Shown piece after piece: positions 40,987-64,000 of a stretch of 64,000 nt of DNA (the first letter of the stretch is position 1; each line of letters opens with the position of its first letter). The translations under genes were made by a program, and so were the position numbers. This stretch comes from Candidatus Bathyarchaeia archaeon (GTDB taxonomy: Archaea; Thermoproteota; Bathyarchaeia; Bathyarchaeales; Bathycorpusculaceae), in contig JAVZLM010000004.1 of the NCBI GenBank assembly GCA_038883775.1, positions 32,001 to 96,000 of the forward strand, in the 5' to 3' direction. The notes beneath the pieces were generated by a model. The model ran no database searches, was not told the origin of the DNA, and saw only the letters and a program-made list of their open reading frames with translations.

Positions 40987-41095
40987 CTAAATCTCTCCAA
41001 ACGCTTTGCGTTAAACGGTTTTGCTTTAAATTTGCGTTAAGGTTTAGAATTCATGAAAAGAGCGTTCCAAAAATATAATGATTTTGGAGTGATTC

Positions 41096-42040
41096 TCACG
41101 GTTTATAATAATAAGGTCTTCGAATGTAACCATAAGCCTCTAACGCTGCAGTTATACCTTGTCCCACAGCTGTTCCCACCTGCTTAACCGGATGATTCGT
41201 AACATCGCCAGCAGCATAAACTCCCATAATGTTTGTTCTTTGGCGAATGTCAACCAAAATATAACCATCCTCATCAACAGCAACCCCCGCCTCTTTGGCT
41301 AGTTGACTGTTTGGGTCTTCTCCAACCTGAACAAAAACGCCGTCAACAAGCAACTCCTTAGTTTCGTTAGTCTTTTTGTTGAAAATTATAGCTTTGTTAA
41401 CTAATCTTTCGCCCTTAATTTCAGTAATTTCCGTGTTCCACAAAATTTCAACATTCTCCTTAGCCTTCAACGCCTTTACAAGCGCTTCTTCAGCTCTAAA
41501 TTCTTCCCTGCGATGAGCAATTTTAACTTCTGAGGATAAATCTGCCAAGTACAAGGCTGTTATGACAGCAGAGTTTCCGCCACCAATAACAAGCACACGT
41601 TTACCCTTAAACAATGGTCCATCACAAATGCCACAGTAACTAACGCCTCTACCACGAAATTCTTTTTCTCCTGGAACGCTAAGTTCACGATAATGTGAGC
41701 CAGAAGCTATTATAACGGCTTTTGCTTCATATGCAGTTTTACTTGTCTTTACAATTTTTTTATCGCCTTTAAGGTGCATTTCAACAACTTTTTCAAACTC
41801 ATGAATTGCGGCGCCAGCTTTTCTGCAGTGAGTTACCATTTTTTGGGCTAATTCCATCCCGTTTATGGTTTGAAAACCTGGATAATTCTCAATTAGAGGC
41901 GCATCAGCCATTGTTCCTCCTGCCAATTTTTCATCCAAAACAAGCGTTTTCAATCCACTTCTTGCACCATAAATTCCGGCGGCTAAACCAGCGGCGCCTC
42001 CGCCAATTATTATTAAGTCCCAATTTTCCATGTTCAACAA
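41096..42040 (-). CDS. trxB: Thioredoxin reductase
   Basis: GGGAAG, IENYPG, GRGVSYCGICDG, GGGNSA, AAGD. Confidence 0.92.
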   Translation of the reverse strand: MLNMENWDLIIIGGGAAGLAAGIYGARSGLKTLVLDEKLAGGTMADAPLIENYPGFQTINGMELAQKMVTHCRKAGAAIHEFEKVVEMHLKGDKKIVKTSKTAYEAKAVIIASGSHYRELSVPGEKEFRGRGVSYCGICDGPLFKGKRVLVIGGGNSAVITALYLADLSSEVKIAHRREEFRAEEALVKALKAKENVEILWNTEITEIKGERLVNKAIIFNKKTNETKELLVDGVFVQVGEDPNSQLAKEAGVAVDEDGYILVDIRQRTNIMGVYAAGDVTNHPVKQVGTAVGQGITAALEAYGYIRRPYYYKP

Positions 42041-44756: not shown

Positions 44757-44856
44757 TTTCTACATCACTTTTGTTGCCTTTAAGAGGTAAGATTTTTAAT
44801 AAGTCTTATCCTTTCTATCAATCCAAACGTATCATGAAAACTGGAGATAAGCGCCG

Positions 44857-47226: not shown

Positions 47227-47310
47227 ATAGGCATGTTGAAATTGTAGTTTCAAGTCGCAAAGTTTAATTTTCATGTCGAACTCAACACTCACAAAAGAGG
47301 TTATCCTACC

Positions 47311-50106
47311 ATGGTTACTTTGTATTTGGATAAGATTTTTAATCCAAGAAGCGTCGCTATAATCGGCGCCAGCGACGAGGAAGGAAGCGTAGGCTATGCT
47401 TTAATGAAAAATTTTATTGATTTAGATTTTGATGGAAAAGTTTATCCTGTTAACATTCGCAAAAATGAAATTTTAGGTTTAAAAGCTTACCAATCTGTAG
47501 ACCAAATTCCAGAACCCATAGATCTTGCAGTCATCGCAACTCCAGCGAAAACTGTTCCTGAAATTGTTGAACAGTGTGGAAAGGCTGGAATAAAGGGTAT
47601 AATCATAATTAGCGCGGGCTTTAAGGAGGTTGGCGCTGAAGGCAAAGCCTTAGAGGAACAAATTCTTGAAATAAAAAACAAATATGGCTTACGCATTATT
47701 GGACCAAACTGTTTGGGCATAATCCGCCCAAGCATAAAACTAAACGCCACATTCATTAATAAAATGCCGAAATCGGGCAACATAGCCTTCATAAGCCAAT
47801 CTGGAGCCTTAGGCTCGGCAATTTTAGACTGGGCTATTCGGGAAAACATTGGCTTCAGCAACTTCGTATCTATAGGTTCAATGTTGGATGTGGATTTCGG
47901 CGATTTAATAGACTATTTCGGCACAGACCCCCAAACAAGAAGCATACTAATGTACATAGAAGGTTTAACAGACGCAAGAAAATTCCTGTCCGCCGCCCGC
48001 CACTTCGCAAGAACAAAACCAATAATTGTGGTAAAGGCTGGAAAATTCTCGGAAAGCGCAAAAGCTGCAGCCAGCCACACGGGTTCTCTTACGGGCGAAG
48101 ACGTGGTTTATGATGCTGCTTTTAAGCGTGCTGGAATCGTTCGAGTAGAAGAGATCGCCGACTTGTTCAATTGTGCTGAAGTTTTGGGCTTGCAGCCATT
48201 GCCGAAAGGTCCAAATCTTGTCATAATAACAAATGCTGGTGGACCAGGAGTTATGGCTACTGACGCGCTCATAGCTAGAGGCGGAAAACTGGCGAAGCTT
48301 AGCCAAAAAACAATGGAATACCTCAACAGCATTCTTCCTCACTATTGGAGTAGGGGAAACCCCGTTGACATTTTGGGAGATGCAAAAGCGGATCGTTACA
48401 AGGCGGTTTTGGAAGCTTGTCTTGATGATGAGAATGTGGATGGCGTATTAATTATTTATACTGCTCAGGCTGTGGCGGAACCTGTGGAAATTGCAAAAAG
48501 CATAGTTGAAGTATGCAAAAACAAGGGTTACCAAAACAAAACAGTTCTAACCTCTTTTATGGGTAGTGGGGTGGTGGAAGAGGCAAATAGAATTTTTAAT
48601 CAGAATAGCATTCCCACTTACGCTACTCCAGAACAAGCGGTTAAAACGTATCTTTACATGTACCAATACAAACGCAACCTTGAACTGCTTTATGAAACAC
48701 CTGAAGAGTTGCCGGTTGATGCTGCCCCACCCAAACGTCCCATAATGGTAATAATGAGAAATGCTGCCTTGGAAAATCGTGAACTTTTGAATGAAGCAGA
48801 AGCCAAAAAACTATTGGAATATTATGATTTTCCAGTTGTGAAAACTGCAGTGGCTAAAACACCTGATGAAACCGCAGCTGTAGCCATGCAAATCGGCTAT
48901 CCAGTGGTTCTTAAAATTTTGTCCCCTCAAATAGTTCATAAAACCGAGGCAGGCGGTGTAATTCTTGACATAAATTCTGAGGCTGAACTTAGAGAGGCTT
49001 TTGAATGTATCATGGAGAGAGCAAAAAAGTATAATCCAAATGCTGAGATTTTGGGCGTCACGGTTCAGAAAATGGTAAAGAGGCGGGGATACGAGATAAT
49101 AATTGGGGCAAAGACAGATCCGCTTTTTGGTCCAGTTATCCTATTTGGAATGGGCGGAATCGGCGTAGAACTCTTTAAAGATTTTTCAGTTGGGCTTCCA
49201 CCTTTGAACCAGACATTAGTTAGGAGGCTTATGGAAGAAACTAAGGTTTACCAGCTTTTGAAGGGTTATAGAAATGTGCCTCCAGCCAACCTTAAACTTC
49301 TTGAAGAGTTGATAGTTCGTTTCTCCCAACTCCTCATAGACTTTCCACAACTAAAAGAAGTCGACATTAACCCGCTGTTTATAGATGAAAACGACGCCGT
49401 AATCATAGACGCTAGAATAGTTATTGATAAAGAAAAAGTGTTCCAGAAACTTGAGCCTCACCAACATCTGGTAATAAGCCCCTATCCTAAGAAATATGAA
49501 ACTTTGTGGAGAATGCGAGATGGGCGCATGGTTCTGCTTAGGCCGATAAAGCCTGAAGACGAGCCTCTATGGTTGGAAATGTTTAGGAATTTCTCCGAGG
49601 AATCTATACGTTTTAGGTTCTTCCAGATAATTAAGGATACGCCTCATGAGGTGCGGGTGAGATATTGCAATATTGATTATGATAGAGAAATAGCAATAGT
49701 TGCAGAACTAACAGAAAATGGACAGAGAAAAATCCTCGGTGTGGTGAGAGTGAGCTTAGAACCTGACAGAAAAAGTGGTGAGATAGCCTTTATTGTGGCT
49801 GATCCATGGCAAGGTTTAGGCTTGGGAACAAAAATGGTGGATTATACAATTGAAATCTGCAAGGACATTGGAGTCGAAGCTCTCTACGCCATAATGCTTC
49901 CAGACAATTATAGAGCAATAAACCTTACAAAGAAAATGGGCTTTACGCTTAAGTATCAAGAGGATGGCACGGTTAAGGGAATTTTAAACTTGAAGGAAGA
50001 AGCAACACGAAGTCAAGAAGAGAAGCTTAAAGAAAAAGCGCAGGTTGTGGCAGCACCCTCTGAACAAAAAGAGCAAAGAAGAGAAGCAGAAACCGTTAGC
50101 AGTTAA
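47311..50106 (+). CDS. ADP-forming acyl-CoA synthetase alpha-beta fusion with C-terminal GNAT domain (Pat-like)
   Basis: IGPNCLG, SQSGA, ASHTGSL, TNAGGPG, HKTEAGGV, DPLFGP, DINPL; GNAT motif WQGLGLG. Confidence 0.92.
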   Translation: MVTLYLDKIFNPRSVAIIGASDEEGSVGYALMKNFIDLDFDGKVYPVNIRKNEILGLKAYQSVDQIPEPIDLAVIATPAKTVPEIVEQCGKAGIKGIIIISAGFKEVGAEGKALEEQILEIKNKYGLRIIGPNCLGIIRPSIKLNATFINKMPKSGNIAFISQSGALGSAILDWAIRENIGFSNFVSIGSMLDVDFGDLIDYFGTDPQTRSILMYIEGLTDARKFLSAARHFARTKPIIVVKAGKFSESAKAAASHTGSLTGEDVVYDAAFKRAGIVRVEEIADLFNCAEVLGLQPLPKGPNLVIITNAGGPGVMATDALIARGGKLAKLSQKTMEYLNSILPHYWSRGNPVDILGDAKADRYKAVLEACLDDENVDGVLIIYTAQAVAEPVEIAKSIVEVCKNKGYQNKTVLTSFMGSGVVEEANRIFNQNSIPTYATPEQAVKTYLYMYQYKRNLELLYETPEELPVDAAPPKRPIMVIMRNAALENRELLNEAEAKKLLEYYDFPVVKTAVAKTPDETAAVAMQIGYPVVLKILSPQIVHKTEAGGVILDINSEAELREAFECIMERAKKYNPNAEILGVTVQKMVKRRGYEIIIGAKTDPLFGPVILFGMGGIGVELFKDFSVGLPPLNQTLVRRLMEETKVYQLLKGYRNVPPANLKLLEELIVRFSQLLIDFPQLKEVDINPLFIDENDAVIIDARIVIDKEKVFQKLEPHQHLVISPYPKKYETLWRMRDGRMVLLRPIKPEDEPLWLEMFRNFSEESIRFRFFQIIKDTPHEVRVRYCNIDYDREIAIVAELTENGQRKILGVVRVSLEPDRKSGEIAFIVADPWQGLGLGTKMVDYTIEICKDIGVEALYAIMLPDNYRAINLTKKMGFTLKYQEDGTVKGILNLKEEATRSQEEKLKEKAQVVAAPSEQKEQRREAETVSS

Positions 50107-50247
50107 AACATTATACTACAATTTAAATTAAACATAACGCAAAGATTTTCATAGTCTTTTTTCTATTTACGAATGGCTAAATTTAAATTATAGAAATGCG
50201 ATTATCTTTCTCTTTCATTGGAAAGCTTCACTTAGTTTGGTGATGAG

Positions 50248-51186
50248 ATGGAGAAGTTAAAAGTAGCCTTTTACTGGGCTGCAAGCTGTGGGGGCTGCGA
50301 AATAGCTGTTTTAGATATAAACGAAAAAATTCTCGATGTAGTAGCAAAAGCAGACATTGTCTTCTGGCCGGTTGCCATAGACATAAAATACAAAGATGTT
50401 GAGGCTATGCCAGACAAAAGCATCGATGCATGCTTCTTTAATGGTGCAATACGTAACAGCGAACAGGAGCATTTGGCAAAACTGTTGAGGCAAAAATCAA
50501 AGATTCTCGTGGCTTTCGGCTCATGCGCTTGTGACGGGTGCGTTGTGGGATTAGGAAATCTTTGGGGCAAGAAAGCAATTTTTGAACGTGCATATTTTGA
50601 AACGCCTTCCACTAAAAATCCGCAATCCGCAACGCCTCAAACTCGCCTCAAAGTGAAAGAAGGTGAGCTTGAACTTCCAGAATTCTACGACACTGTAAAA
50701 ACCTTAGCTCAAACAGTTGAAGTGGACTATTTCATTTCAGGCTGTCCACCACCAGTTCCGCGAATAATTGAAGCTTTCGAAGCAATACTAAGTGGCAAGT
50801 TGCCTCCAAAGGGCTCAAGCTTCCTATTAAACAAGTCCATATGCGACGAATGCCCCAGAGAAAAGAAGGATAGAAAAGTTGCCCATGTAAAGAGAATCTA
50901 CGAAATAGAGGACGATTTTAAAACATGCTTCTTAGATCAAGGAGTCGTATGCATGGGTCCAGCAACCCGTGGCGGATGCGGCGCCCAATGTTTAAAGGCG
51001 AATATTCCATGCACTGGGTGTGGTGGTCCAGCCCCAAGAGTGGCGGACCAAGGCGCTGCGATGATAAGCGCATTTGCCTCCATTGCAACAGAACCCAAAG
51101 TTATAGAACAAGTTGTAGACCCTGTTGGAACTTTCTACAAGTATTCCCTTGCAAATTCCATTCTGCGAAGGAGAGTGATTAAATGA
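50248..51186 (+). CDS. mvhG: Group 3c [NiFe]-hydrogenase small subunit
   Basis: SCGGCE, FGSCA, GCPP, CDECP, CMGPATRGGC..C..PCTGC. Confidence 0.93.
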   Translation: MEKLKVAFYWAASCGGCEIAVLDINEKILDVVAKADIVFWPVAIDIKYKDVEAMPDKSIDACFFNGAIRNSEQEHLAKLLRQKSKILVAFGSCACDGCVVGLGNLWGKKAIFERAYFETPSTKNPQSATPQTRLKVKEGELELPEFYDTVKTLAQTVEVDYFISGCPPPVPRIIEAFEAILSGKLPPKGSSFLLNKSICDECPREKKDRKVAHVKRIYEIEDDFKTCFLDQGVVCMGPATRGGCGAQCLKANIPCTGCGGPAPRVADQGAAMISAFASIATEPKVIEQVVDPVGTFYKYSLANSILRRRVIK

Positions 51187-52646
51187 AAGAAATAGTGATA
51201 AACCCAATTACGAGATTGGAAGGGCACGGAAAAATAACAATCTTCTTAAACGACGAAGGAAACGTAGAAGAAGCCTACTTCCAAGTCCCAGAACTTAGAG
51301 GCTTCGAAAAATTCTGCGAAGGAAGAAGAGCCGAAGACTTACCAATAATAACCACAAGAATTTGCGGAGTCTGCCCAGTAGCCCACCACATGGCAGGAGC
51401 CAAAGCCTTAGACGCTGCCTTTAATGTGGAACCTCCAGAAACAGCCAAAAAACTTAGGGAGCTCATGTATTGCGGTTATTACCTTTACGACCACACATTA
51501 CACTTCTACTATCTTGGAGCTCCAGACTTTGTCGTCGGACCAGACGCCCCTCCAGCGAAAAGAAACGTTCTCGGAGTGATAGAAAAGGTTGGTCTTGAAA
51601 TAGGCAAGGAAGTCATAAAACATAGGGCTTATGGACAAAAAATAACAGAAATATTGGGCGGTAAGGCAACCCACCCCGTAAGCGCTTGTGTTCCAGGCGG
51701 AATCACGAGACCATTGTCTGAAGAGGAAAGGCAAGAAATTGAGAAAATGGTGCGCAGCTTCATAGAATTCGCAAAGTTCACCCTCAAAATCTTTGATGAC
51801 GTTGTCCTAAAAAACACTAACTATGTAAACCTAATCAAAAGCGAACCCTACACCCTAAAAACCTATTACATGGGAACAGTTGACAAAAACAACCACGTAA
51901 ACTTTTACGACGGCAAAGTCCGCGTCGTAGACACGCAAGGAAAGGAATTCGTGAAATTCTCTTCAAAAGAATACTTAGACGTTATCGAAGAGCATGTTGA
52001 ACCATGGACCTATGTCAAATTGCCCTACCTAAAAAAGGTTGGATGGAAAGGACTAGTTGGCGGACAAGACAGCGGACTTTATAGAGTGGGTCCCCTTGGA
52101 AGACTCAACGCTGCGGAAGGAATGGCAACACCCATAGCCCAAGCAGAATACGAAAGAATGTATGAAACTCTCGGCGGAAAACCCGTCCATAATACTTTGG
52201 CTTATCATTGGGCTAGAGTTATAGAGCTAATGTATGCGGCTGAAAGAGCTTTAGAATTGATAACAGATCCGGAAATAACTGGAAAGGACATTAGAAACAA
52301 GCCTGGAAAACCAGGCGAAGGTGTTGGCATAGTGGAAGCAGCAAGGGGCACACTTATTCATCATTACCAACTGGATGAGAACGCTCTTGCCAAAAAAGTC
52401 AACTTGATAGTAGCCACAACACACAATGCACCAAGTATTTGCATATCCGTTAAAAATGCGGCAAAGAGCCTCATACAAAATGGCAAGGTTAATGATGGAA
52501 TATTAAACATGGTTGAAATGGCATTTAGAGCTTACGACCCATGTTTCGCATGTGCAACCCATTTTGCAGTTGGACAAATGCCGCTAACCATTGAAATTTA
52601 CAATCATGAAAGGCAATTGTTAAAAACTATAAGGAGGAAGGGGTGA
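51183..52646 (+). CDS. mvhA: Group 3c [NiFe]-hydrogenase large subunit
   Basis: TRLEGH, RICGVCPVAH (L1), RAYDPCFACATH (L2), followed by a C-terminal extension. Confidence 0.95.
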   Translation: MKEIVINPITRLEGHGKITIFLNDEGNVEEAYFQVPELRGFEKFCEGRRAEDLPIITTRICGVCPVAHHMAGAKALDAAFNVEPPETAKKLRELMYCGYYLYDHTLHFYYLGAPDFVVGPDAPPAKRNVLGVIEKVGLEIGKEVIKHRAYGQKITEILGGKATHPVSACVPGGITRPLSEEERQEIEKMVRSFIEFAKFTLKIFDDVVLKNTNYVNLIKSEPYTLKTYYMGTVDKNNHVNFYDGKVRVVDTQGKEFVKFSSKEYLDVIEEHVEPWTYVKLPYLKKVGWKGLVGGQDSGLYRVGPLGRLNAAEGMATPIAQAEYERMYETLGGKPVHNTLAYHWARVIELMYAAERALELITDPEITGKDIRNKPGKPGEGVGIVEAARGTLIHHYQLDENALAKKVNLIVATTHNAPSICISVKNAAKSLIQNGKVNDGILNMVEMAFRAYDPCFACATHFAVGQMPLTIEIYNHERQLLKTIRRKG

Positions 52647-52648
52647 AA

Positions 52649-55066
52649 ATGGATAAGGTTAAGGTTGGCGTATTCCTTTCAGACTGCGGAAACCAAATAT
52701 CCCAAATCCTTGACTTCGAAGCCCTAATTGAATATGTAAAGGAAATTCCGGGGGTTGCGCTTGTTGCTAGAGCTAGCGAATTTTGGCGTGGCGAAGGATT
52801 AAAAACAATAGTCGAAGCCGTTAAAGGCAAAAAAGTAAACCGCGTTGTTGTGGCAGAAACAATTCCAAAACTAAGCGAAATAAACATTCTCGAGTCTGTG
52901 GAAAAAGCTGGGCTTAACCCATACTTAGCGGAGATAATAGACTTGAAAGACCATTGCGCATGGCCCCATAAAGACTCGCCAAAAGAAGCCACAGAAAAAG
53001 CTAAAGCAATGCTTTTGTCCGCCATTGAACGGGCTAAACTTCTCGAACCCATAGAGAAACTTGAGTTTCCAGCAACCAAATCCGTTTTGGTCATAGGCGG
53101 TGGCATAGCGGGAATACAAGCAGCTGAAGACTTGGCGGAAATGGGATTTGTAGTATATTTAATTGAGAAGGAACCATTCCTCGGAGGTTTGGCTGCCCGT
53201 GCTGGACGCTTCTTCCCCACTGATGATTGTGCCATATGCATACAGTCTCCAGCTTCAGACTTGAAAACTGTGACCCATACTTCCCGCAAATGCGTTTATC
53301 GTTCGGGGTTCACGGAAATTCCAAACCTAAACGTGCTAACAAATTCAAGGGTTCTAAAAGTTGAAGGAGTTCCGGGAAACTATAAGGTTACGATAGAGAA
53401 GAAGCCAAGATATGTTAATGAGGAAAAATGTGTTGCCTGCGACTTATGCACAACTGTTTGCCCAGTAGAAGTTCCAGACGCATATAATGCTAATCTTAAA
53501 AAACGCAAAGCCATCTACATAAACACGCCAATAGTTTATCCACCAGTCTACGCCATTGATGCCAGCGCCTGCAAATTTGACGAATGTGCCAAATGCGTGG
53601 AAGTTTGTCCAACAAAAGCTATAGAATTAAACCAGAAAAGCAAGAAAATGACGTTAAACGTTGGCAGCATAATAGTTGCCACGGGCTTTAAAGAGTATGA
53701 CCCAAGCGTAATAAAGGAATACCATTACGGTGAATACCCAGATGTAATAACCCAACTTGAACTGGCAAGGATGATTGACGGTTTTGGTCCCACAAAAGGC
53801 ATGATAATTAGACCTTCTGATGGAAAACCAGCAAAAAGAATAGTTTTCGTGCAATGTGTTGGTTCCAGAGATAGACGTTGGAACCCATGGTGTTCAAGCA
53901 TCTGCTGCATGATATCACTAAAACATGCTACGCTAATTAAATCGGCCTATCCAGACACTGATGTCACAATATGCTACATTGACATAAGAACAACTGGAAG
54001 AGAACACGAATACTATTACGAACGGGCAAGAGAGATGGGAGTAAAATTCGTGAAGGGTAGACCAACAGAAATTTTGCATGACCCAGAAGCGAACGTTTTG
54101 GTTGTTGATGTGGAAGATGAGCTTCTGCGAAGGTTCTTAGAATTGGAAGCTGATTTGGTGGTTTTGGCGCCTTCCATGGTTCCAGCGGATGGCACAAAAG
54201 AGCTTGCTGAAATTTTAGGTTTAGAATTGGACGAGGATGGTTTCTTTAAGGAATATAACGCCAAGCTTAGACCAACAGAAACCAAAAAGAGGGGAATCTT
54301 CCTTTGCGGCGGAGCCACATTTCCAAAGGATGCTCCGACAACATCCCTTCAGGCTCATTCAGCAGCTATGAAAGCCGCCAAGTTCCTTAACATGGGCAAA
54401 ATAGTTAAAGACCAGAGAACAGCTGTTGTAAATGAAGAGTATTGTGGCGACTGCGAATTCTGTCCGGTCACTTGTCCCTATGGTGCTATAACTTTGACTC
54501 CTAAAGGTGACGGGCATTTTGTTGCAAAAATATCCGACCTCCTATGCGAGGGATGCGGCGTCTGTGTAGGCACATGTCCGGTTAACGCTATTGAACTCCG
54601 ACATTCCAGACCAAACCAAATGTTAGCTCAAATGAGAGCTCTCCTCTCAATAAATGGAACATCAAAACCACTAGTTCTAGCCATAACCTGCTTAGAATGC
54701 GGAAATGCCGCTGTGGATTCTTCTGGCATGGCTATGATGCAGTATCCAGCCAACGTAAGAATAATGAGGGTTCCATGCACTGGAATTTTGCAAGTTCAGC
54801 AAATCCTTGAAGCCTTTAGGGCTGGCGCCCAAGGAGTCATGGTTGTTGGATGCAAAACCGACGGCTGCCACTATGAAATTGGGAGTCAAATAGCCCAAAG
54901 AAAAGTGGAATTGGCAAAAATGTTGCTTAAAGAGTATGGCATAGAACCCGAACGGCTGGAAATGTTCAACATGGTTTACATTGAAGGAGACAAATTCGCC
55001 GAAGCTGCAAAAATGATGACTGAAAGAGTAGAGAAACTTGGTCCCATCAAAATAACATCATCTTAA
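52649..55066 (+). CDS. hdrA: HdrA-MvhD fusion with degenerate N-terminal domain
   Basis: GGGIAG, FPTDDC, CVGSRD, CSSICCMISLK, ferredoxin motifs; intact MvhD domain (CLEC, VPCTG, GCKTDGCHY). Confidence 0.92.
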   Translation: MDKVKVGVFLSDCGNQISQILDFEALIEYVKEIPGVALVARASEFWRGEGLKTIVEAVKGKKVNRVVVAETIPKLSEINILESVEKAGLNPYLAEIIDLKDHCAWPHKDSPKEATEKAKAMLLSAIERAKLLEPIEKLEFPATKSVLVIGGGIAGIQAAEDLAEMGFVVYLIEKEPFLGGLAARAGRFFPTDDCAICIQSPASDLKTVTHTSRKCVYRSGFTEIPNLNVLTNSRVLKVEGVPGNYKVTIEKKPRYVNEEKCVACDLCTTVCPVEVPDAYNANLKKRKAIYINTPIVYPPVYAIDASACKFDECAKCVEVCPTKAIELNQKSKKMTLNVGSIIVATGFKEYDPSVIKEYHYGEYPDVITQLELARMIDGFGPTKGMIIRPSDGKPAKRIVFVQCVGSRDRRWNPWCSSICCMISLKHATLIKSAYPDTDVTICYIDIRTTGREHEYYYERAREMGVKFVKGRPTEILHDPEANVLVVDVEDELLRRFLELEADLVVLAPSMVPADGTKELAEILGLELDEDGFFKEYNAKLRPTETKKRGIFLCGGATFPKDAPTTSLQAHSAAMKAAKFLNMGKIVKDQRTAVVNEEYCGDCEFCPVTCPYGAITLTPKGDGHFVAKISDLLCEGCGVCVGTCPVNAIELRHSRPNQMLAQMRALLSINGTSKPLVLAITCLECGNAAVDSSGMAMMQYPANVRIMRVPCTGILQVQQILEAFRAGAQGVMVVGCKTDGCHYEIGSQIAQRKVELAKMLLKEYGIEPERLEMFNMVYIEGDKFAEAAKMMTERVEKLGPIKITSS

Positions 55067-55078
55067 CAATGGAGATAA

Positions 55079-55594
55079 ATGGAAATGGCACAACAAAAAA
55101 CCTCCCCAAAAAATTTTTCCAAAGAGATAACAAGCCGACTTGGCGGCGAAACAATAACCTTTTGCTATCAATGCGGAACATGCGCCAGCAGCTGCCCAGT
55201 TGCCAAAATTACGGAAAAGTTCAATCCAAGAGAAGTTATTAGACTGGCGCTTTTGGGAATGAGGGATGAGGTTTTAGCTGGCGATGCCATTTGGCTTTGT
55301 TCTTCATGCTACAACTGTCAAGAACGTTGTCCTCAAAAAGTGGAAATAGCTGATGTCATCTATGCCTTAAGAAATATAGCCATACGAGAAGGGCACATTC
55401 CAAACATTTATTCAGAGTTTGCAGCTGGACTAATGAGTGAAGGACGCATAGTTCCAATCTCCAAATTTTTAGAAAAGAAGAGACCAGAATACGGTTTGCC
55501 ACCCCTAAAACCAGCAGGAGTTGAAGCAATAAGAAAGATTCTTTCCGCCACTGGTTTTGACAAGATTCAATTCAAAAAAGGTGAGACGCCATGA
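55079..55594 (+). CDS. hdrC: Heterodisulfide reductase subunit C
   Basis: CYQCGTCASSCP, WLCSSCYNCQERCP. Confidence 0.93.
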   Translation: MEMAQQKTSPKNFSKEITSRLGGETITFCYQCGTCASSCPVAKITEKFNPREVIRLALLGMRDEVLAGDAIWLCSSCYNCQERCPQKVEIADVIYALRNIAIREGHIPNIYSEFAAGLMSEGRIVPISKFLEKKRPEYGLPPLKPAGVEAIRKILSATGFDKIQFKKGETP

Positions 55595-56466
55595 CCACAT
55601 ACGCTTTATTCCTCGGCTGCACGATACCAGCCCGCCAACCACACTATGAATTGTCTGCAAGGAAAGCCTTAACAAAATTGGGAATAGAACTTGTCGACTT
55701 AGATAATATGACATGCTGCGCTCCTCCACCATTGCAGTCAATAGATTTGGAAACAAGCTTGGCTATTGCCGCGCATAATATTTGTATAGCTGAAGAGGCA
55801 GACCTTAACATAGTTACTCTTTGCACGGGCTGTTTCGAATCCTTGGCGATGGCAAATGCCATTTTAAAAGAGAATGAAGAACTGAAAGCGAAAGTGAACA
55901 AAATCCTTTCCAGTGTCGGTAAAGAGTTTAAGGGCAACAAGGAAGTTAGGCATTACCTTCAAGTTTTGATGAATGATGTAGGCTTAAAGCGCTTAGAAAA
56001 GAGCGTAGTTAAAAAATTAAATAACTTGAAAGTGGCATCCTTTTCTGGTTGTCACCTTCTCAGACCCAGCGCGCTTTTAAAATTTGATGATCCAGAACGC
56101 CCACGAATATTTGATAGCCTCATTGAAGCCTTAGGCGCGAAAAGCATTTGGTATCGAAACAAGCTAAAATGTTGTGGAGGACTTTTGAGAGGCTATGCCG
56201 ATGATGTTGCCTTAGCCATCGCAAAAGACAAAATTGTAAACGCTACAAGAGCTGGCGCCGATTGCATATCAACCCTTTGTCCCTTCTGCTTCTTAACATT
56301 AGATCTGGGGCAGATGCTCATAAAATCCACCTACAAAGAAGAATACAACATGCCAATCATTCACTACTCTGAACTTCTAAGCCTAAGTTTGGGAATAGAC
56401 CCAAAAGAGCTTGCCCTTGACTTTCACAAGGTAAAAGTGGACCCGGTGCTGAAAAAATTAGGTTAA
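55591..56466 (+). CDS. hdrB: Heterodisulfide reductase subunit B
   Basis: FLGC, TCC, CTGC, GCHLLRP, KCCGG, CPFC. Confidence 0.93.
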   Translation: MTTYALFLGCTIPARQPHYELSARKALTKLGIELVDLDNMTCCAPPPLQSIDLETSLAIAAHNICIAEEADLNIVTLCTGCFESLAMANAILKENEELKAKVNKILSSVGKEFKGNKEVRHYLQVLMNDVGLKRLEKSVVKKLNNLKVASFSGCHLLRPSALLKFDDPERPRIFDSLIEALGAKSIWYRNKLKCCGGLLRGYADDVALAIAKDKIVNATRAGADCISTLCPFCFLTLDLGQMLIKSTYKEEYNMPIIHYSELLSLSLGIDPKELALDFHKVKVDPVLKKLG

Positions 56467-57301: not shown

Positions 57302-58378
57302 TTACGCCTTCTTTTTCACTGGCAATGGTGCGGTTCGAACGTGCTTCACTACCCGGATAATATGCTCCACATCTTTTCTCGGCTGCTCCAACGCTCTGTT
57401 TATTGCTATATCTGCAATTGTCGCCCCTTTATCTGCAATCTTGTTCAGACAAGAAATATTCGCCCTTAAATATGGAATTTCAGGAGCTTCTCGCATAAGT
57501 TTTTCTGCCTCCATTTCCAACACATTCTTCATTTCCAACACTCCATTGGCAACTCTTAGGTCTCGTGTGAAGATGCAGTCTAAGGCTTTCTGGAAGATAG
57601 TCTGCGTTAACTCGCCCATATGATAAATCCTTTCCACAATCTCCTTTGGAATTCTATCTCTATAGGGTTCCAATTCGACAATTTTTCTGGCTATGTCCTC
57701 AGAATAGTCTGCGATTAACTCTAAATACTGCAATATTAAACGGGTGGCTGGAATGAAGAGGATGTCTGTTGCGCCTATTTGCTCTGCCACAGCGGGTTTT
57801 GCTTGTGCAGAAAGGAGCAGACGCACCGCCAAATAATAGATAGTGTCTGCTTCGTCTTCTCGGCTTACCGCCTCATTGGCTAAGGAATAATTTTTCTCCA
57901 AGAAAGCCTGCATGGCTTCAGACAAAATTGTTGAAGCAATTAGGGACAATCGTCTAATAAGCATGTCAATTTTAAACTTGGCTGGGTCCACGGAGCATTG
58001 CAACAAAATATTGTTTGGTGTTTCTTCCAGAATACCTAAACCAATGAGTTTCCGAACAATTCTCCGAATTTCATCCACATGCATCTTCCCTATTCTGCTT
58101 GAAGATGTTATCCTTATAACATCCCGTCCGAGAATGTAGCTTCCAACAATTATTCTTTCCAGCATGCCTTGCTCATCGCATGCGTCCGCATTTATTATGT
58201 ATTCTTCAGCTTCCTCTTTCAGCGCCATTTGACTTGGCACAATTTTTAATGTGCCGTCTCTTTCCGGGATGAGGAAAACAGGGTCTCCGGGGTTAATGTT
58301 GTTTTGTTTTGCCCATTCGCTTGGAAGCGAAACCGTCATTGTTGAGTATCCTACTTTTTGCACTTTTCTACTTTCCAA
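57302..58378 (-). CDS. phoU: PhoU-family regulator with N-terminal AbrB domain
   Basis: RKVQKVGYSTMTVSLPSEWA, EDEADTIY, LELIADY, IAD; TTG 58378 is the likely start. Confidence 0.88.
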   Translation of the reverse strand: MESRKVQKVGYSTMTVSLPSEWAKQNNINPGDPVFLIPERDGTLKIVPSQMALKEEAEEYIINADACDEQGMLERIIVGSYILGRDVIRITSSSRIGKMHVDEIRRIVRKLIGLGILEETPNNILLQCSVDPAKFKIDMLIRRLSLIASTILSEAMQAFLEKNYSLANEAVSREDEADTIYYLAVRLLLSAQAKPAVAEQIGATDILFIPATRLILQYLELIADYSEDIARKIVELEPYRDRIPKEIVERIYHMGELTQTIFQKALDCIFTRDLRVANGVLEMKNVLEMEAEKLMREAPEIPYLRANISCLNKIADKGATIADIAINRALEQPRKDVEHIIRVVKHVRTAPLPVKKKA

Positions 58379-58512
58379 AATAGATTCCTTCGCATGGTAT
58401 TTACTATTATTTGTTTTATATGCATTACGCATATCTCTTCTATTATGTTATGTATTAGCTAAATATTGAGTAAAAATGATAAAATGTAGCGAAATGTTGA
58501 GAAGGGTAGTTT

Positions 58513-58734
58513 ATGATAGAAAAACCTGTTAGAAGTTTAGTTAAAGCCATTTCTTGGCGAATTGTTGCAACCATAACCACTATACTCTTGGTTGTAGTTT
58601 TCAGTAAGGATTTGGCTTTGGGTACGATTGTGGGCATTACGGAACTTGTGGTGAAGACTATTGTTTATTATGTTCATGAGCGTGTTTGGAATTTGTCCAA
58701 CTTTGGTAGAGAAGTCAAAAGCAAAGTGCAGTGA
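58513..58734 (+). CDS. DUF2061 small membrane protein
   Basis: RSLVKAISWR..YYVHERVW. Confidence 0.88.
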   Translation: MIEKPVRSLVKAISWRIVATITTILLVVVFSKDLALGTIVGITELVVKTIVYYVHERVWNLSNFGREVKSKVQ

Positions 58735-58847
58735 TTATTTCAATGTCGTCTAAATATGGTATTTACTATTATAATTTATAAATGCACTAAGTATATATTT
58801 AATTCTTGCACTATATATCACTCAAGGTTAAAGGAGGTTGATAAAAA

Positions 58848-59450
58848 ATGACCGAAAAAACATCAGAATGGAAAACCGTAAGCATAAGACAAGAACTCAT
58901 AAAAGAAATAGAAGAAGCCATAAAAACAGGACGTTACCGAAGCATTTCGGAATTCGTCTCAGAAGCCATCCGCCTACGCTTAGAAGACCTAATGCGGGCA
59001 GAAGGAATCCCAATTGAAAAACGCAAAGAACTTTTAGCAAAACCAGAATTGCTACTCTACACGCCTAAACACACATGGGCTCAAATCACTCCTGAAGGAA
59101 ACATAAGAGTCGGCGTTTCCGAATATGCCCAAAAACACTTGAAAAGCATAGTTCGCGTATTAACCGAGCCAGTAGGAAAGGAAATCACCAAAATGGAGCC
59201 CTTCGGAGTTGCCGAAACCTGGATGTTCATGTTCGACCTTTACGCTCCAGTTAGTGGCAAAATAGTCAAGGTCAACGAGAAATTGAAGAACGAGCCCAAC
59301 ATCATAAACGAAGACCCCTACAATGAAGGATGGATTATTGAGATAAAGCCCAAAAACTCTTTGGTTCTGGAAGAGGAACTTAAAAAGTTACTTAGCGCAA
59401 GAGAGTACAACAAGTGGATAAGCAAGCTTGAAGGAAGATTACGCGAATAA
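58848..59450 (+). CDS. RHH DNA-binding domain fused to a glycine-cleavage-H-like domain lacking the lipoyl lysine
   Basis: WKTVSI..GRYRSISEFVSEAIR (RHH); YTPKHTW, VGVSEYAQ, DLYAPVSGKIVKVN, INEDPYNEGWI (GcvH fold); AETWMF replaces AESVKA. Confidence 0.88.
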   Translation: MTEKTSEWKTVSIRQELIKEIEEAIKTGRYRSISEFVSEAIRLRLEDLMRAEGIPIEKRKELLAKPELLLYTPKHTWAQITPEGNIRVGVSEYAQKHLKSIVRVLTEPVGKEITKMEPFGVAETWMFMFDLYAPVSGKIVKVNEKLKNEPNIINEDPYNEGWIIEIKPKNSLVLEEELKKLLSAREYNKWISKLEGRLRE

Positions 59451-59571
59451 TTTCCCATCTCCCCCTTTTTATTTGCTGCATTTTTGATGCGTTATAATTG
59501 TGTTAAGTTTAACTTAGGTGGCTTAATATATTAGGCTTATAAAACTTTACATAGGTAAAGCTGGTTCCATA

Positions 59572-61284
59572 ATGGCAGCTAAAACTGAAACAAAAGTGAG
59601 AAAACTTCCACCATGCCGCGCGGCATGCCCAGCCCATGTCAACGTTCAAGGATATGTAGCTTTGTTGCAAATGGGAAAATTCAAGGAAGCCGTTGAAATC
59701 ATAAGAAGGGACATGCCCTTTCCGGCAATATGCGGAAGAGTCTGCTTCAGCCCATGCGAAGATGCGTGTGCTAGAACCAACGTGGATCAAGCAGTAGCCA
59801 TACGCGCCCTAAAAAGACTTGTCGCTGATATTGAAAGAGAAACTGGAAGAGTGAAGGCAGAACCCATACCGAAAAAATACAGCGAAAAAGTCGCCATAAT
59901 AGGCGCAGGTCCAGCGGGTTTAACAGCAGCTTACGAGCTTGCAAAGCTTGGTTATCCAATAACAGTTTTTGAGCGAATGAGCGAGGCTGGCGGAATGATG
60001 CGTTATTGCATACCCGAATTTCGACTTGAAAAATTTGTTGTAGCCAACGAAATAGCCTACATAAAAGATTTAGGCGTCGAAATTAAAACAGGCGTGGAAT
60101 TTGGAAAAGACATAACTATCCAAAGTCTGCAAGATGAAGGTTACAAGGCTATTTTCTTAGCCATCGGAACACAACTGGGCATGAAGTTAAATGTACCAGG
60201 CGAAGATTTAGAAGGCGTGATAAACGCTGTTGACTTCTTGAGAGCTGTGAATTTGGGAGAACATGTTAAGGTTGGAGAAAAGGTTGCGGTTGTTGGAGGT
60301 GGAAACACTGCTATTGACGCTGCGCGCACGGCGAAAAAGCTTGACGCTAAAGAAGTTATGATATTGTATAGACGTTCCCGCGAAGAAATGCCAGCCTTGC
60401 CCCATGAAGTTGAATTGGCTGAGAAGGATGGAATAAAGTTCTATTTTCTTGTTGCTCCAAAACAGATTATAGGTGAAAATGGCAAGGTTAAAGCCATTGA
60501 ATGCTTAAGAATGCGGTTGGGCGAACCAGACGAAAGCGGAAGAAGACGCCCAATTCCAATAAGCTTTTCTGAACATCAATATGAAGTTGACATGGTGATT
60601 CCAGCCCTTGGACAAGTGGCAGAAATATCATGCATACCAAAAGAACTTCTAGACAAAGAAACAAGAGCTCCATCATTAAAAGTTGACCCAACAACCCTAG
60701 AAACAAACATGCCAGGCGTTTTCGCAGGAGGCGACATAGCCACAGGACCAGCAAGCATAATTGAAGCTGTAGGTGCTGGGAAAAGAGCCGCTGTTTCAAT
60801 TCACCGTTATCTTCAAGGGATAGATTTGCGAAGTGGAAGAGAAGAGGTTGAAGAAACAACATGGGTTAAAAACTGGGGATACATTAACAAAAAAGAACGC
60901 AGATATGAGCCTCCAGTGGAGAAGCCGCGGCTGAGTTTTGAGGAGGCAATGGAATATTTAGAAAAGATAAAACAGCAAGCCATGTTTGAAGCTTTTCGCT
61001 GCTTGGGATGTGGACCTTGCGCTGAATGCTTGGCAAACTTGGAATTATGTGAGGGTGACAAGGCTATTATTGATGAAACGTTATGTATAGGCTGCAATGT
61101 CTGCGCTGTCGTCTGTCCATTTGGAGCAATTAAAAAGAACGAAAAGGAAATCGCCCAAGTAAACGAAGACCTTTGCAAGGGCTGCGGAATTTGCGCGGCA
61201 AGATGCCCAGAACAAGCCATAACAATGAAGAAACTGCCAAACGAGAGAATTCTAAGCCTCGCTTTAGCAACTATTAAGGGGTGA
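59572..61284 (+). CDS. GltD-like FAD/NAD(P)H oxidoreductase with C-terminal ferredoxin domain (HdrL-insert-like)
   Basis: PPCRAACP, CGRVCFSPCE, GAGPAG, GGGNTAID, YRRS, AGGD, RCLGCGPC, two CxxCxxCxxxCP motifs. Confidence 0.9.
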   Translation: MAAKTETKVRKLPPCRAACPAHVNVQGYVALLQMGKFKEAVEIIRRDMPFPAICGRVCFSPCEDACARTNVDQAVAIRALKRLVADIERETGRVKAEPIPKKYSEKVAIIGAGPAGLTAAYELAKLGYPITVFERMSEAGGMMRYCIPEFRLEKFVVANEIAYIKDLGVEIKTGVEFGKDITIQSLQDEGYKAIFLAIGTQLGMKLNVPGEDLEGVINAVDFLRAVNLGEHVKVGEKVAVVGGGNTAIDAARTAKKLDAKEVMILYRRSREEMPALPHEVELAEKDGIKFYFLVAPKQIIGENGKVKAIECLRMRLGEPDESGRRRPIPISFSEHQYEVDMVIPALGQVAEISCIPKELLDKETRAPSLKVDPTTLETNMPGVFAGGDIATGPASIIEAVGAGKRAAVSIHRYLQGIDLRSGREEVEETTWVKNWGYINKKERRYEPPVEKPRLSFEEAMEYLEKIKQQAMFEAFRCLGCGPCAECLANLELCEGDKAIIDETLCIGCNVCAVVCPFGAIKKNEKEIAQVNEDLCKGCGICAARCPEQAITMKKLPNERILSLALATIKG

Positions 61285-61291: not shown

Positions 61292-62047
61292 ATGGAAGCA
61301 GACAAATACAACATTGTTTGTTTCATGTGCAACTGGGCGTTCTGTGAAGAGGAAATGCAAATCCCATCAGACGTGAATGTTGTCCGCGTAATGTGTATTG
61401 GACGATTAGACCCAGTTCTAATTCTGGAAACCTTTGAAAAGGGCGTAGACGGCATCATGCTCGTTGGCTGCAAACCACCAGACTGCCACTACATTGACGG
61501 AAACCTTCACGCAGAACGTACCGTGAAAATGTTAAGAAAACTTCTTAAACTAACTGGCTTAGAAACAGAACGCATAAAACTCCTCTGGTATTCTCCCACG
61601 GACGAGAAAAGTTTTGGGAGTTATGCTAAAAAATTTTTGAAAGAAATTAAAGAAATTGGCTTTTCTCCACTAAGAAGAGAAGCGCCAAAATCTACACTTT
61701 TGGTTAATGTTCTAGCAGCTAAAAATGCCGCCTCAGACTTTAGGCTAAGGGTTTTGCTTGGAAGAGAAAAGGAGTTAACAGAAGGTGTGAACGTTTACGG
61801 CGAAAAATTGTCAGCAGAAGAGTTTGATGCTTTATTAGATGAAATTGTCACGGAAGAATTTGTTCGACACAAAATCCATGTTCTAACCAAAACCGAACCC
61901 CTCTCTGTGAAGGCTTTGGCTGATGTCCTTGAAATGAAAACTGCAAACGTTCTTAGGCACATTGTGAACATGCGCAGAAAAAACATGATAGCCCTAGACC
62001 ATGTGGAGGGCACAACTCCACTTTACAGGGCATTGGAGGTTAAATAA
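61292..62047 (+). CDS. mvhD: MvhD-like [2Fe-2S] protein with C-terminal winged-helix-like extension
   Basis: FMCNWA, VMCIGRLD, GCKPPDCHY; C-terminal LSVKALADVLEMKTANVLRHIVNMRRKN. Confidence 0.85.
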   Translation: MEADKYNIVCFMCNWAFCEEEMQIPSDVNVVRVMCIGRLDPVLILETFEKGVDGIMLVGCKPPDCHYIDGNLHAERTVKMLRKLLKLTGLETERIKLLWYSPTDEKSFGSYAKKFLKEIKEIGFSPLRREAPKSTLLVNVLAAKNAASDFRLRVLLGREKELTEGVNVYGEKLSAEEFDALLDEIVTEEFVRHKIHVLTKTEPLSVKALADVLEMKTANVLRHIVNMRRKNMIALDHVEGTTPLYRALEVK

Positions 62048-62048
62048 A

Positions 62049-64000
62049 ATGACAGAAGAGAAAGTAGGAGCAGTTCTCGTTGTTGGCGGAGGAGTAGCGG
62101 GAATACAGGCGTCGCTGGATTTGGCGGATTCCGGCTTTAAAGTGTATTTAATTGATGAGGGGGCAAGCATTGGCGGAGTGATGGCTCAGCTTGACAAGAC
62201 ATTTCCAACAAACGATTGTTCAATGTGTATTTTATCGCCTAAGCTTGTGGCAACTGGGAGACACCCAAACATCACAATTTTAACTAACACTGAAATATTG
62301 GGTTTGAAGGGTGAGGCTGGAAACTTCGAAGTGAAACTTCGAAAACGTAGCCGTTATATAATCGAAGAGAAATGCAACGGATGTGGTTTATGCGCACAAA
62401 AATGTCCCATCGAAGCCGTGGACATGTATAATGAGGGTTTAAGCGAAAGAAGCGCAATTTACGTTGATTATCCCCAAGCGGTTCCACTAAAATACAAGAT
62501 TGACCGTGAAAAATGCATTGGATGCGGAACATGCTACGAAATCTGCAAAGCAAAGGCTGTAGCCTACGACCAACAAGACAGCGAAGCCACCCTAAAAGTA
62601 GGCTCAATAATCCTTGCGCCGGGATTTGAACCCTTCGACGCCAAATTGAAAAGTGAATACGGTTATGGACGCTACTTAAACGTGGTTACAAGCATAGAAT
62701 TTGAACGCATCTTAAGCGCTTCTGGACCTTACGGTGGACTTGTTTTAAGACCTTCGGATGGCGAAATTCCAAAAAAGATAGCGTTTATTCAATGTGTTGG
62801 TTCCCGCGATTATAAGCTTGGAAACAATTATTGTTCTGCTGCATGTTGCATGTATGGAATGAAAGAGGCAGTAATAGCAAAAGAACACACCCCGACGAAG
62901 TTGGATGCCACAATTTTCTATATGGATTTGAGGGCTTATGGAAAAGAATTCGATGCTTACTATGATAGGGCAAAGGAAGAGTGGGGCATACGGTTTGTAA
63001 GGTCAAGAGTGGCCTCAATAACAGAAGACCCATCCACTGGAAATCTTTTCGTTCATTACGTGGAGGATGAACAGCCTAAAACAGAAGAATTTGACATGGT
63101 CGTCCTATCCATAGGCATGCAACCGCCAAAAAATGTTGAAAAAATAGCCAAAGTTTTAGGCATAGAACTTAACAAATACAAGTTTTGCGAAACAAAAACT
63201 TTTTCACCATTAGAAACATCAAAACCCGGCATATTCGTCTGCGGAGCCTTCAGTGCACCAAAGGACATCCCAGAAAGCGTTGCCCAAGCAAGCGGCGCCG
63301 CAGCAAAGGCAATGAGCATAATTGCCAGTGAAAGAGGAAAGCTTGTAGCAGTTAAGGAATATCCGCCAGAAAGAGATATTAGCCAAGAAGAACCCCGCAT
63401 AGGCGTTTTTGTCTGCCACTGTGGCATAAACATAGGCGGAGTTGTTAACGTTCCAGAAGTGGTGGAATATGCAAAAACTTTGCCAAATGTGGTTTATGCC
63501 GAAGCCAACCTATACACATGCTCACAGGATACCCAGAAGCTGATTAGAGAGAAAATCCAACAATACAAACTTAACCGCGTTGTTGTAGCCTCTTGCACAC
63601 CGCGAACGCATGAGCCACTATTTAGAGAAACTGTTCAAGAGGCTGGCTTAAACCCATACCTGTTTGAGATGGCAAACATAAGAGACCAGTGCAGCTGGGT
63701 GCACATGCACGAGCCAAAAGAGGCAACAGAAAAAGCAAAAGACCTTGTCCGCTCGGTTGTGGCAAAAGCCAAACTTCTCAAACCACTGAAAAAGCCAGAG
63801 ATAAGCGTAACACCAGTAGGCTTAATCATAGGCGGCGGCGTCGCTGGAATGACAGCAGCCTTAGAACTGGCAAAACAAGGGTTTGAGGTGCATCTTGTTG
63901 AAAGAGAAAAGGAGTTAGGTGGGCACTTACGCAAAATTTACTATTTGTTGGAAGGCGAAAACCCAAAGGAAATTTTAGATGCGCTAATTAATGATGTTAT
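62049..64000 (+). CDS. hdrA: Large permuted/double HdrA (runs off window), missing from ORF track
   Basis: ATG 62049: MTEEKVGAVLVVGGGVAG..LDKTFPTNDCSMC..CVGSRD..CSAACCMY, then an internal RIGVFVCHCGINIGG..ASCTPRTHEPLF domain and a second GGGVAG FAD motif. Confidence 0.93.
   Translation, partial: MTEEKVGAVLVVGGGVAGIQASLDLADSGFKVYLIDEGASIGGVMAQLDKTFPTNDCSMCILSPKLVATGRHPNITILTNTEILGLKGEAGNFEVKLRKRSRYIIEEKCNGCGLCAQKCPIEAVDMYNEGLSERSAIYVDYPQAVPLKYKIDREKCIGCGTCYEICKAKAVAYDQQDSEATLKVGSIILAPGFEPFDAKLKSEYGYGRYLNVVTSIEFERILSASGPYGGLVLRPSDGEIPKKIAFIQCVGSRDYKLGNNYCSAACCMYGMKEAVIAKEHTPTKLDATIFYMDLRAYGKEFDAYYDRAKEEWGIRFVRSRVASITEDPSTGNLFVHYVEDEQPKTEEFDMVVLSIGMQPPKNVEKIAKVLGIELNKYKFCETKTFSPLETSKPGIFVCGAFSAPKDIPESVAQASGAAAKAMSIIASERGKLVAVKEYPPERDISQEEPRIGVFVCHCGINIGGVVNVPEVVEYAKTLPNVVYAEANLYTCSQDTQKLIREKIQQYKLNRVVVASCTPRTHEPLFRETVQEAGLNPYLFEMANIRDQCSWVHMHEPKEATEKAKDLVRSVVAKAKLLKPLKKPEISVTPVGLIIGGGVAGMTAALELAKQGFEVHLVEREKELGGHLRKIYYLLEGENPKEILDALINDV

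Follow-up and report, generated by a model that had tools for sequence, protein, structure and literature searches.

In a 64,000-nucleotide stretch of a metagenome-assembled Candidatus Bathyarchaeia archaeon genome (GenBank assembly GCA_038883775.1, contig JAVZLM010000004.1, positions 32,001 to 96,000 of the forward strand; hereafter the window), we identified a 200-aa protein that joins an N-terminal ribbon-helix-helix (RHH) domain to the fold of the glycine cleavage H-protein, GcvH, from which the lipoyl lysine is missing. The gene, here called RHH-GcvH, occupies 58848-59450 on the forward (+) strand, stop codon included. This architecture is genuine, recurs across Bathyarchaeia and evolves under purifying selection, and the protein is most likely a regulator encoded beside redox-enzyme operons and wrongly named GcvH in databases. 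Collectively, our results suggest that it is probably a one-component RHH regulator whose sensor domain derives from the H-protein fold.

An RHH domain and an H-protein fold without the lipoyl lysine

The RHH domain (residues 8-51, 58869-59000, +) comprises a predicted β-strand (WKTVSIR) followed by helices at residues 13-26 and 33-51, the second of which carries the signature G-x-Y-x-S-x-S-E-F-V-S-E-A-I. Scanned alone, residues 1-58 matched Pfam RHH_1 at 24.5 bits, above the cut-off of 20.5, and the same model was matched by 6 of the 12 family members tested. A profile of 12 family N-termini, compared with solved structures, retrieved the RHH of Helicobacter pylori NikR (E 0.011) and the ParD and CopG antitoxins; because the coiled coil of VASP scored slightly better than these, the profile evidence for an RHH is moderate. 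The AlphaFold model (13-row alignment, predicted local distance difference test 85) contains both helices, a linker helix and an all-β domain. A homodimer prediction from two copies and a broad family alignment (score 0.27, mark 0.42) weighs neither way on dimerization.

Residues 66-195 (59043-59432, +) form the H-protein domain, recognized by Pfam, phmmer, AlphaFold and Foldseek alike. Pfam GCV_H scored 110.5 bits across residues 69-192, and in Foldseek the all-β domain of the model superposed on solved H-proteins with template modelling (TM) scores of 0.90-0.94 and root-mean-square deviations of 1.2-1.9 Å, at 32-40% identity to the solved GcvH chains. Together with the RHH_1 match of the isolated N-terminal domain, these results confirm the fusion of an RHH to a complete H-protein fold that an earlier note on this DNA had described. 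The lipoyl hairpin is replaced by AETWMFMFD (residues 122-130, 59211-59237, +). In phmmer alignments with the solved GcvH of Mycobacterium tuberculosis (3ift) and pea (1dxm), E-T-W-M falls under E-S-T/V-K; Met126 (59223-59225) therefore occupies the position of the lipoyl lysine, as had been proposed for the codon at 59223. The protein also contains no cysteine. Without a lysine at the hairpin tip and without cysteine, RHH-GcvH can neither carry lipoate nor form a disulfide; the H-protein fold is intact, but lipoylation at the canonical site is impossible. Its score on the TIGR00527 equivalog model (104.8) is under the cut-off of 115.85, and its score on the looser subfamily model NF002270 (124.6) is above the cut-off of 117.

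A whole-genome search found a canonical GcvH, with ESVKAVSD, and gcvT on contig 1, and gcvPA and gcvPB on contig 2. Two genes of the BPL_LplA_LipB (lipoate-ligase) family lie on contig 4 at 114914, outside the window, and on contig 1, and a third, weak GCV_H match in the genome was a carboxylase biotin carrier (AMKM). The window itself holds no gcvT or gcvP, as previously reported. Because the canonical GcvH, the glycine cleavage genes and both lipoate-ligase-family genes are found elsewhere, RHH-GcvH is a paralogue with another job, and its genomic context shows no link to the glycine cleavage genes, which sit on other contigs. Two further suggestions of the earlier note are speculation: a hydrophobic hairpin imitating the lipoyl arm, and a coupling of lipoate-dependent enzymes to the expression of heterodisulfide reductase (Hdr), for which gene context offers no backing. 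In locus L001 (127-1968, contig 1), the canonical gcvH of this genome adjoins the gene for a 448-aa pyridine-nucleotide-disulfide oxidoreductase, not gcvT/P.

Conservation, selection and descent

A word-indexed search returned 836 relatives of RHH-GcvH, the best 120 of which are all at least 82% identical to it. Sources that name these 120 mostly use 'glycine cleavage system H protein', while 'ribbon-helix-helix protein, CopG family' appears twice; clusters in the ESM Atlas carry only the automatic name 'Glycine cleavage H-protein domain-containing protein'. Among the closest proteins and contigs, every label reads Candidatus Bathyarchaeia or Bathyarchaeota. An exhaustive search of 50%-identity representatives recovered the same two-domain layout down to about 32% identity, with the lysine in none and with the hairpins WMFMF, WMFKF, RFAHV, VARWPLVIH, TSNRLF, PAWCFIH, PGWWYLR, WLSTY and WWFTR. 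One representative cluster is labelled Baldrarchaeota.

Eighty Bathyarchaeia genome loci (GTDB species representatives) hold 84 copies of RHH-GcvH. The frame is intact in all 84, and none has lysine at the aligned lipoyl position; the hairpin reads ETWMF(M/V)F in 80 copies, ETWWF in 3 and ETTSNKLF in 1. Among 63 ungapped orthologues, the ratio of non-synonymous to synonymous substitution rates (dN/dS) had a median of 0.057 across the entire gene (n = 33 with unsaturated dS); taken separately, the RHH gave 0.071 (n = 54) and the H-protein part 0.041 (n = 16), and the nine hairpin codons differ from those of the window by 189 synonymous and 9 non-synonymous changes. The caveat of the earlier note, that homologues might retain the lysine and the window's copy simply be decayed, is answered by these figures, which indicate purifying selection in both domains.

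We aligned 151 sequences, namely 149 of the 150 best representatives (P0138 being excluded for its length), the window protein and P0300, and found lysine in the lipoyl column of 105 but not of the other 46. In a FastTree phylogeny built from the H-protein domains of the 145 rows that reach 100 residues, all 19 lysine-less rows with at least 44 N-terminal residues fell inside one clade of 28 rows, entirely lysine-less, with Shimodaira-Hasegawa-like support of 0.86; the rows with long N-termini were not each confirmed as RHH, and two (P0139 and P0238) clearly have other N-termini. The clade splits into two subclades, A (the type of the window) and B. The hydrophobic, methionine- and aromatic-rich hairpin tip is constant within type A and differs between the subclades, which is the pattern that would be expected of a partner- or ligand-specific surface. 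The remaining 12 lysine-less rows are scattered outside the clade. Stand-alone GcvH-like proteins with neither the lipoyl lysine nor an RHH (P0147, P0149, P0174, P0175, P0184, P0201, P0203 and others) lie scattered outside it, so the lysine must have been lost several times. In the RHH-GcvH lineage itself, the H-protein fold would have lost it once, early.

The missing lysine and the GcvH name in databases might suggest a decayed or pseudogenized gcvH with a chance N-terminal extension and no function. Decay is excluded by the absence of the lysine from every one of the 84 copies, by dN/dS values of about 0.04-0.07 in both domains and by the single lysine-less clade. The intact frames, the excess of synonymous changes in the hairpin and the persistence of the same architecture down to 32% identity also contradict it, and we give it practically no weight; the pseudogene reading is refuted by the selection data.

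The genome of the window carries type A only. In other loci, two paralogues stand in tandem, type B upstream and type A downstream (L081-83, L084, G141, G216, G320, G322, G325, G331, G334, G337, G343, G349 and G356), and a second copy is also found in L058. One representative, P0121, fuses both units into a single chain of 417 aa in the order of the tandem genes. Both the tandem genes and this fusion fit a pairing requirement of RHH domains.

Gene neighbourhood, promoters and a probable terminator

The most constant neighbour of RHH-GcvH is a divergent gene (57302-58432, reverse (−) strand) encoding an AbrB(SpoVT)-PhoU protein, with one MazE_antitoxin/AbrB and two PhoU domains in Pfam. Between the divergent pair lies a variable gene for a small DUF2061 membrane protein (58513-58734, +), found in 29 of 72 loci. 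Downstream, on the same strand and as the earlier note had it, are genes encoding a GltD/NfnB-like NAD(P)H flavoprotein with a C-terminal 2x[4Fe-4S] domain (59572-61284, +), an MvhD-like protein with a C-terminal extension (61292-62047, +) and an HdrA-like flavoprotein (62001-64000, +) that runs off the window and probably starts further in, at an ATG near 62049. Beyond the point where the window ends, the operon of the near-identical locus L004 goes on with more HdrA/MvhD, HdrC and HdrB.

To count neighbours, we searched the 80 loci by tblastn with those of the window, the denominators being loci with enough flank. A GltD-like gene lies within 1.5 kb downstream in 63 of 74 loci (at least 1.5 kb of downstream flank), and GltD, MvhD and HdrA are found together in 49 of 56 (at least 4.5 kb). 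In 70 of 72 loci (at least 1.3 kb of upstream flank), a divergently oriented AbrB-PhoU gene stands no more than 1.5 kb upstream. A metagenome scan with the type B protein P0130 returned two loci, of which L084 was the useful one; this contig encodes AbrB (divergent), P0130 (42% identical), P0300 (type A, WMFKF) and GltD-like, MvhD and HdrA proteins. The linkage to the GltD-MvhD-HdrA genes is therefore conserved, with the same gene order at 42% identity; the tightest partner, however, is AbrB-PhoU, which was absent from the earlier note. The AbrB-PhoU/RHH-GcvH pair looks like a conserved two-regulator module. Two of the 11 loci without a downstream GltD were examined. L063 has genes for TauE, a 2Fe-2S thioredoxin-like protein and NuoF-like and NuoG-like proteins downstream, and L069 has a converging NuoF/NuoG-like cluster with the small and large subunits of a [NiFe]-hydrogenase.

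The phyletic distribution agrees with this picture in that the downstream operon is the variable part. Of 301 genomes sampled evenly across the phylum, at least 9 have a full-length RHH-GcvH, and these 9 all belong to the window's family or order. In an order-level sample of 151 genomes it was full-length in 39 and only partial in 3 more. A near-full-length GltD orthologue (at least 64% identity) was present in 25 of the 151, with one further partial (G415); 24 of these 25 also have RHH-GcvH, and 15 of the 39 genomes with RHH-GcvH lack the GltD orthologue. An AbrB-PhoU orthologue (at least 50% identity) was found in 42 of the 151, with 37 among the 39. These counts are descriptive, as related genomes do not count independently and a few may lack genes through incompleteness. 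They show that AbrB-PhoU and RHH-GcvH form a constant module with a variable downstream operon. The genomes that keep RHH-GcvH without GltD fit a regulator, which can be rewired in this manner; a dedicated enzyme subunit would be less prone to such rewiring.

The neighbourhood also bears on whether RHH-GcvH could be the antitoxin-like partner of a toxin-antitoxin pair, a reading prompted by weak matches to families of ParD and antidote proteins. None of the loci examined has a toxin gene next to it, the conserved neighbours are instead AbrB-PhoU and redox operons, and the C-terminal domain is an H-protein fold. We rejected this candidate on the missing toxin gene and the C-terminal fold, and consider it very improbable.

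An alignment of 71 distinct orthologous upstream regions defined a conserved promoter and leader at 58759-58837 (+). In the window it contains the conserved promoter element GTATTTAC (58759-58766), a first box (TGCACTA 58783-58789 and TATATAT 58792-58798), a second box (TGCACTA 58807-58813, overlapping TATATAT 58812-58818) and a Shine-Dalgarno sequence, GGAGG (58833-58837), all on the + strand. The consensus of the 71 regions is GTATTTAC ... TATaTgCatTA.aTATATAT, about 10 variable nt, tTT..gcTATATATcActCA ... TAAAGGAGG; the conserved two-box layout is GTATTTAC, ..GCAyTA nn TATATAT, about 17 nt, ..gyTATATATCA and TAAAGGAGG. The TGCACTA repeat pointed out in the earlier note is present at 58783 and 58807. 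It is, however, the window's version of two variable heptamers ahead of two invariant TATATAT boxes, and among the 71 regions the window alone has the exact sequence at both sites. TGCACTA is also not enriched in the window (3 found versus 7.6 expected), and we therefore rejected it as the operator.

Directly after the stop codon, a C-rich stretch with T-runs (59454-59486, +) resembles an archaeal terminator and may function as one; a C-rich stretch and T-run begin nearly all of 64 intergenic regions 3' of the stop codon. Next comes the promoter region of gltD (59488-59531, +), with TGCGTTA at 59488, TGTGTTA at 59499, 11 bp apart, and the TATA-like CTTAATATAT at 59522-59531, which here precedes the gltD ATG by 40 nt. 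In relatives of at least 70% identity, CTTAATATAT is conserved about 40 nt 5' of the gltD ATG, together with ATGTTA-N5-ATGTTA direct repeats. The RHH-GcvH gene is thus probably monocistronic, given its own terminator-like T-run and the separate conserved TATA box of gltD. The earlier description of the gene as heading an hdr operon is not supported, on these grounds and on the lack of the GltD orthologue from 15 of the 39 order-level genomes that have RHH-GcvH. In the four deepest loci (L080-83), the intergenic region is only 57-64 nt long with no such TATA box, so co-transcription with gltD is possible there.

A relaxed motif, TGYRYTA, fits all four sites in the window and forms same-strand pairs at 58421/58451, at the start of abrB-phoU, and at 58783/58807, 59488/59499 and 41007/41033. 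In the region of the last pair, TTGCGTTAA is repeated 26 bp apart (41004-41041, +) between the open reading frames 39757-40986 (−) and 41096-42040 (−), in the promoter region of an operon encoding an MvhD-ferredoxin fusion, an NfnA-like and an NfnB(GltD)-like protein (37526-40986, −). These repeats at 41007/41033 resemble those at 59488/59499 ahead of gltD. As sequence patterns, the TGYRYTA pairs are suggestive, a lead and not a regulon.

Several further features were observed around the gene. In two runs labelled metatranscriptomic and flagged as probably DNA (X5 and X8), summed contig depth over 58774-59309 was 890-2361 and 439-966, with neighbours at about 10-160. Over 58774-59443 the depth of these runs was about 10-40 times that of the neighbours and fell between the gene and gltD; genes cannot be ranked by contig depth, and this is a lead only. 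Two DNA runs of the same study (X2 and X3) had flat depth of about 110-500. The C-terminal extension of the MvhD-like protein (61292-62047, +; 251 aa) is about 120 aa long and gave weak winged-helix matches (HTH_20, E 0.003; ArsR/SmtB, E 0.002); the full length, extension included, is kept in orthologous loci. Upstream of the divergent pair, a dense Hdr/Mvh block (43647-56466) encodes an HdrD-like protein (43647-44756, −), an HdrA-MvhD fusion (44857-47226), [NiFe]-hydrogenase small and large subunits (50248-52646), a second HdrA-MvhD fusion (52643-55066), HdrC (55079-55594) and HdrB (55591-56466). Within its span, a 931-aa protein (47311-50106, +) joins an ADP-forming acyl-CoA synthetase (CoA-binding, succinyl-CoA-ligase-like and ATP-grasp domains) to a C-terminal GNAT acetyltransferase, which is a Pat-like protein acetyltransferase architecture.

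Regulator, enzyme subunit or both

We favour, with a probability of roughly 0.55, the reading that RHH-GcvH is a one-component regulator in which an RHH, predicted to bind DNA, is joined to an H-protein-derived domain for sensing or docking. A regulator fits better than an enzyme subunit because of the RHH signature, the tandem pairing, the gene's own promoter and probable terminator, the constant partner, itself a predicted DNA-binding protein, and the variable redox operons. The N-terminal RHH would dimerize and bind repeated boxes in its own promoter and in those of the divergent abrB-phoU and the adjacent redox operon, and the gene would be transcribed from its own promoter and end at its own T-run. 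The C-terminal domain would now be a signal-receiving or partner-docking module, possibly oligomerizing, as in NikR. With AbrB-PhoU, the protein may form a regulatory module that different lineages have placed ahead of different electron-bifurcating or hydrogen-metabolism operons, such as GltD-MvhD-HdrA in the window and NuoEFG-like and [NiFe]-hydrogenase genes in L063 and L069. Architecture, lysine loss, purifying selection, gene context and conserved promoter boxes are established here, whereas we infer that the protein binds DNA, where its operators lie, in which direction it regulates and what kind of signal it receives. The one-component regulator of the earlier note thus survives as the best reading, whereas an hdr-operon head, a lipoyl-arm mimic and a TGCACTA operator lack support in that form.

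Several observations weigh against this reading. In the full-length protein, the RHH_1 match (residues 10-46) scored 20.3 bits, just below the cut-off, the other 6 of the 12 tested members had no RHH_1 match at E 0.1, and the N-terminal β-strand is unformed in the monomer AlphaFold model, although both RHH helices are modelled. The conserved upstream boxes are TATA-like and hence may be plain promoter elements, so that an operator is not established. TGYRYTA is rarer than expected in the window (38 versus 64), and one pair (20033/20070) lies inside a coding region. Finally, the 1391-aa representative P0138, which combines three lysine-less GCV_H domains with a flavin adenine dinucleotide (FAD)-linked oxidase (GlcD-like), a 4Fe-4S dicluster and two CCG domains (HdrD-like), shows that lysine-less GCV_H domains can be built into Hdr-type enzymes.

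The P0138 fusion favours an alternative in which RHH-GcvH is a non-catalytic accessory or docking subunit, or an assembly factor, of Hdr-like and hydrogenase complexes. Its lysine-less domain would bind an enzyme at the carrier docking site, and the N-terminal helices would serve for dimerization only. Hdr-type genes do lie close by in most loci, and a report on Culexarchaeia describes a GcvH gene inside an Hdr/hydrogenase cluster, proposed there to encode a disulfide carrier (PMC9723716). RHH-GcvH could not play such a role with a dithiol cofactor, however, as it has neither a cysteine nor the hairpin-tip lysine. The N-terminus carries an RHH signature common to NikR, CopG and ParD, a terminator-like T-run and a separate promoter stand between the gene and gltD, more than a third of the order genomes with RHH-GcvH (15/39) have no GltD orthologue, and the constant partner is AbrB-PhoU, another predicted DNA-binding protein. 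We therefore regard a subunit as doubtful, though worth keeping in view.

A third reading, to which we give slightly less credence, combines the evidence for the regulator and for the subunit. Here an RHH regulator would dock an Hdr-type, lipoyl-handling or AbrB-PhoU partner through its H-protein domain, and occupancy or redox state would control DNA binding. The 37-40% identity to true GcvH and the score above the NF002270 cut-off (124.6 versus 117) suggest that docking surfaces may be retained, and AbrB-PhoU co-occurs in 37 of 39 genomes. A related, tentative proposal is that the lysine-less domain acts as a carrier-protein mimic, docking Hdr-type (CCG/HdrB/D-like) or lipoyl-handling enzymes, or binding an Hdr disulfide or thiol substrate in the lipoyl-arm cleft, and so reporting the state of electron bifurcation to the RHH. 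If true, RHH-GcvH would be a transcription factor made from a dead swinging-arm carrier, acting with AbrB-PhoU as a two-protein switch, and P0138 would be the enzyme-bound counterpart of this regulator.

Returning to the favoured regulator, we compared it with known systems. No description of an RHH joined to a lysine-less GcvH was found in the literature searched, outside which lay supplementary gene tables, and the author of the earlier note likewise knew of none. Literature on heterodisulfide reductase with an RHH regulator gave none for this protein, the example that surfaced being a cell-cycle RHH of Sulfolobales, and literature on AbrB and PhoU in archaeal transcription yielded general papers only. 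Papers on GcvH together with CopG were unrelated, and those on lysine in GcvH-like proteins of archaea dealt with lipoate and LbpA. GcvH itself (PF01597, TIGR00527) shares the fold and hairpin geometry (TM 0.90-0.94), whereas RHH-GcvH has methionine for the lipoyl lysine, a sub-cut-off TIGR00527 score, an N-terminal RHH and no adjacent gcvT/P. NikR has the same order of parts, a CopG/NikR-type RHH followed by a C-terminal domain that does not bind DNA. The C-terminal domain of NikR is ACT-like and binds nickel, whereas that of RHH-GcvH has the GCV_H fold, with no cysteine and no histidine cluster. Streptococcus pyogenes GcvH-L (PDB 5a35; Foldseek E 5.7e-6) likewise diverges from the H-protein and does not belong to the glycine cleavage system, but this paralogue is a lipoyl carrier, lacks an RHH and shares just 14% identity.

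Unmodified barrel-sandwich-hybrid domains such as RnfC_N and NqrA_N offer another likeness, as lipoyl/biotinyl-like folds that serve as cofactor-free structural or interaction modules, and a neighbouring paralogue gave a weak RnfC_N match. Unlike RHH-GcvH, these domains belong to redox complexes of the membrane and have no DNA-binding motif attached. LbpA of the sulfur-oxidizing sHdr systems is a lipoylated carrier (PMC6067878). It is also a GcvH-like protein encoded beside Hdr-like genes, but it is lipoylated on a conserved lysine, whereas RHH-GcvH has no such lysine, is fused to an RHH and has AbrB-PhoU and the soluble, bifurcating-type GltD-MvhD-HdrA as neighbours, with the lipoate-ligase-family genes outside the window. 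A survey covering the types of HdrA reports insertions of GltD into the HdrA of Bathyarchaeota and, in the part available, does not mention GcvH (PMC12054007).

Hundreds of database entries misname this protein 'glycine cleavage system protein GcvH', which inflates inferences of glycine cleavage and lipoate use in metabolic reconstructions of Bathyarchaeia. If RHH-GcvH is a regulator, it would clearly exemplify how the fold of a swinging-arm carrier can become a domain for sensing or docking, and no earlier candidate would precede it as a control element of the soluble Hdr/Mvh-type electron-bifurcating clusters in an abundant, uncultured class of archaea.

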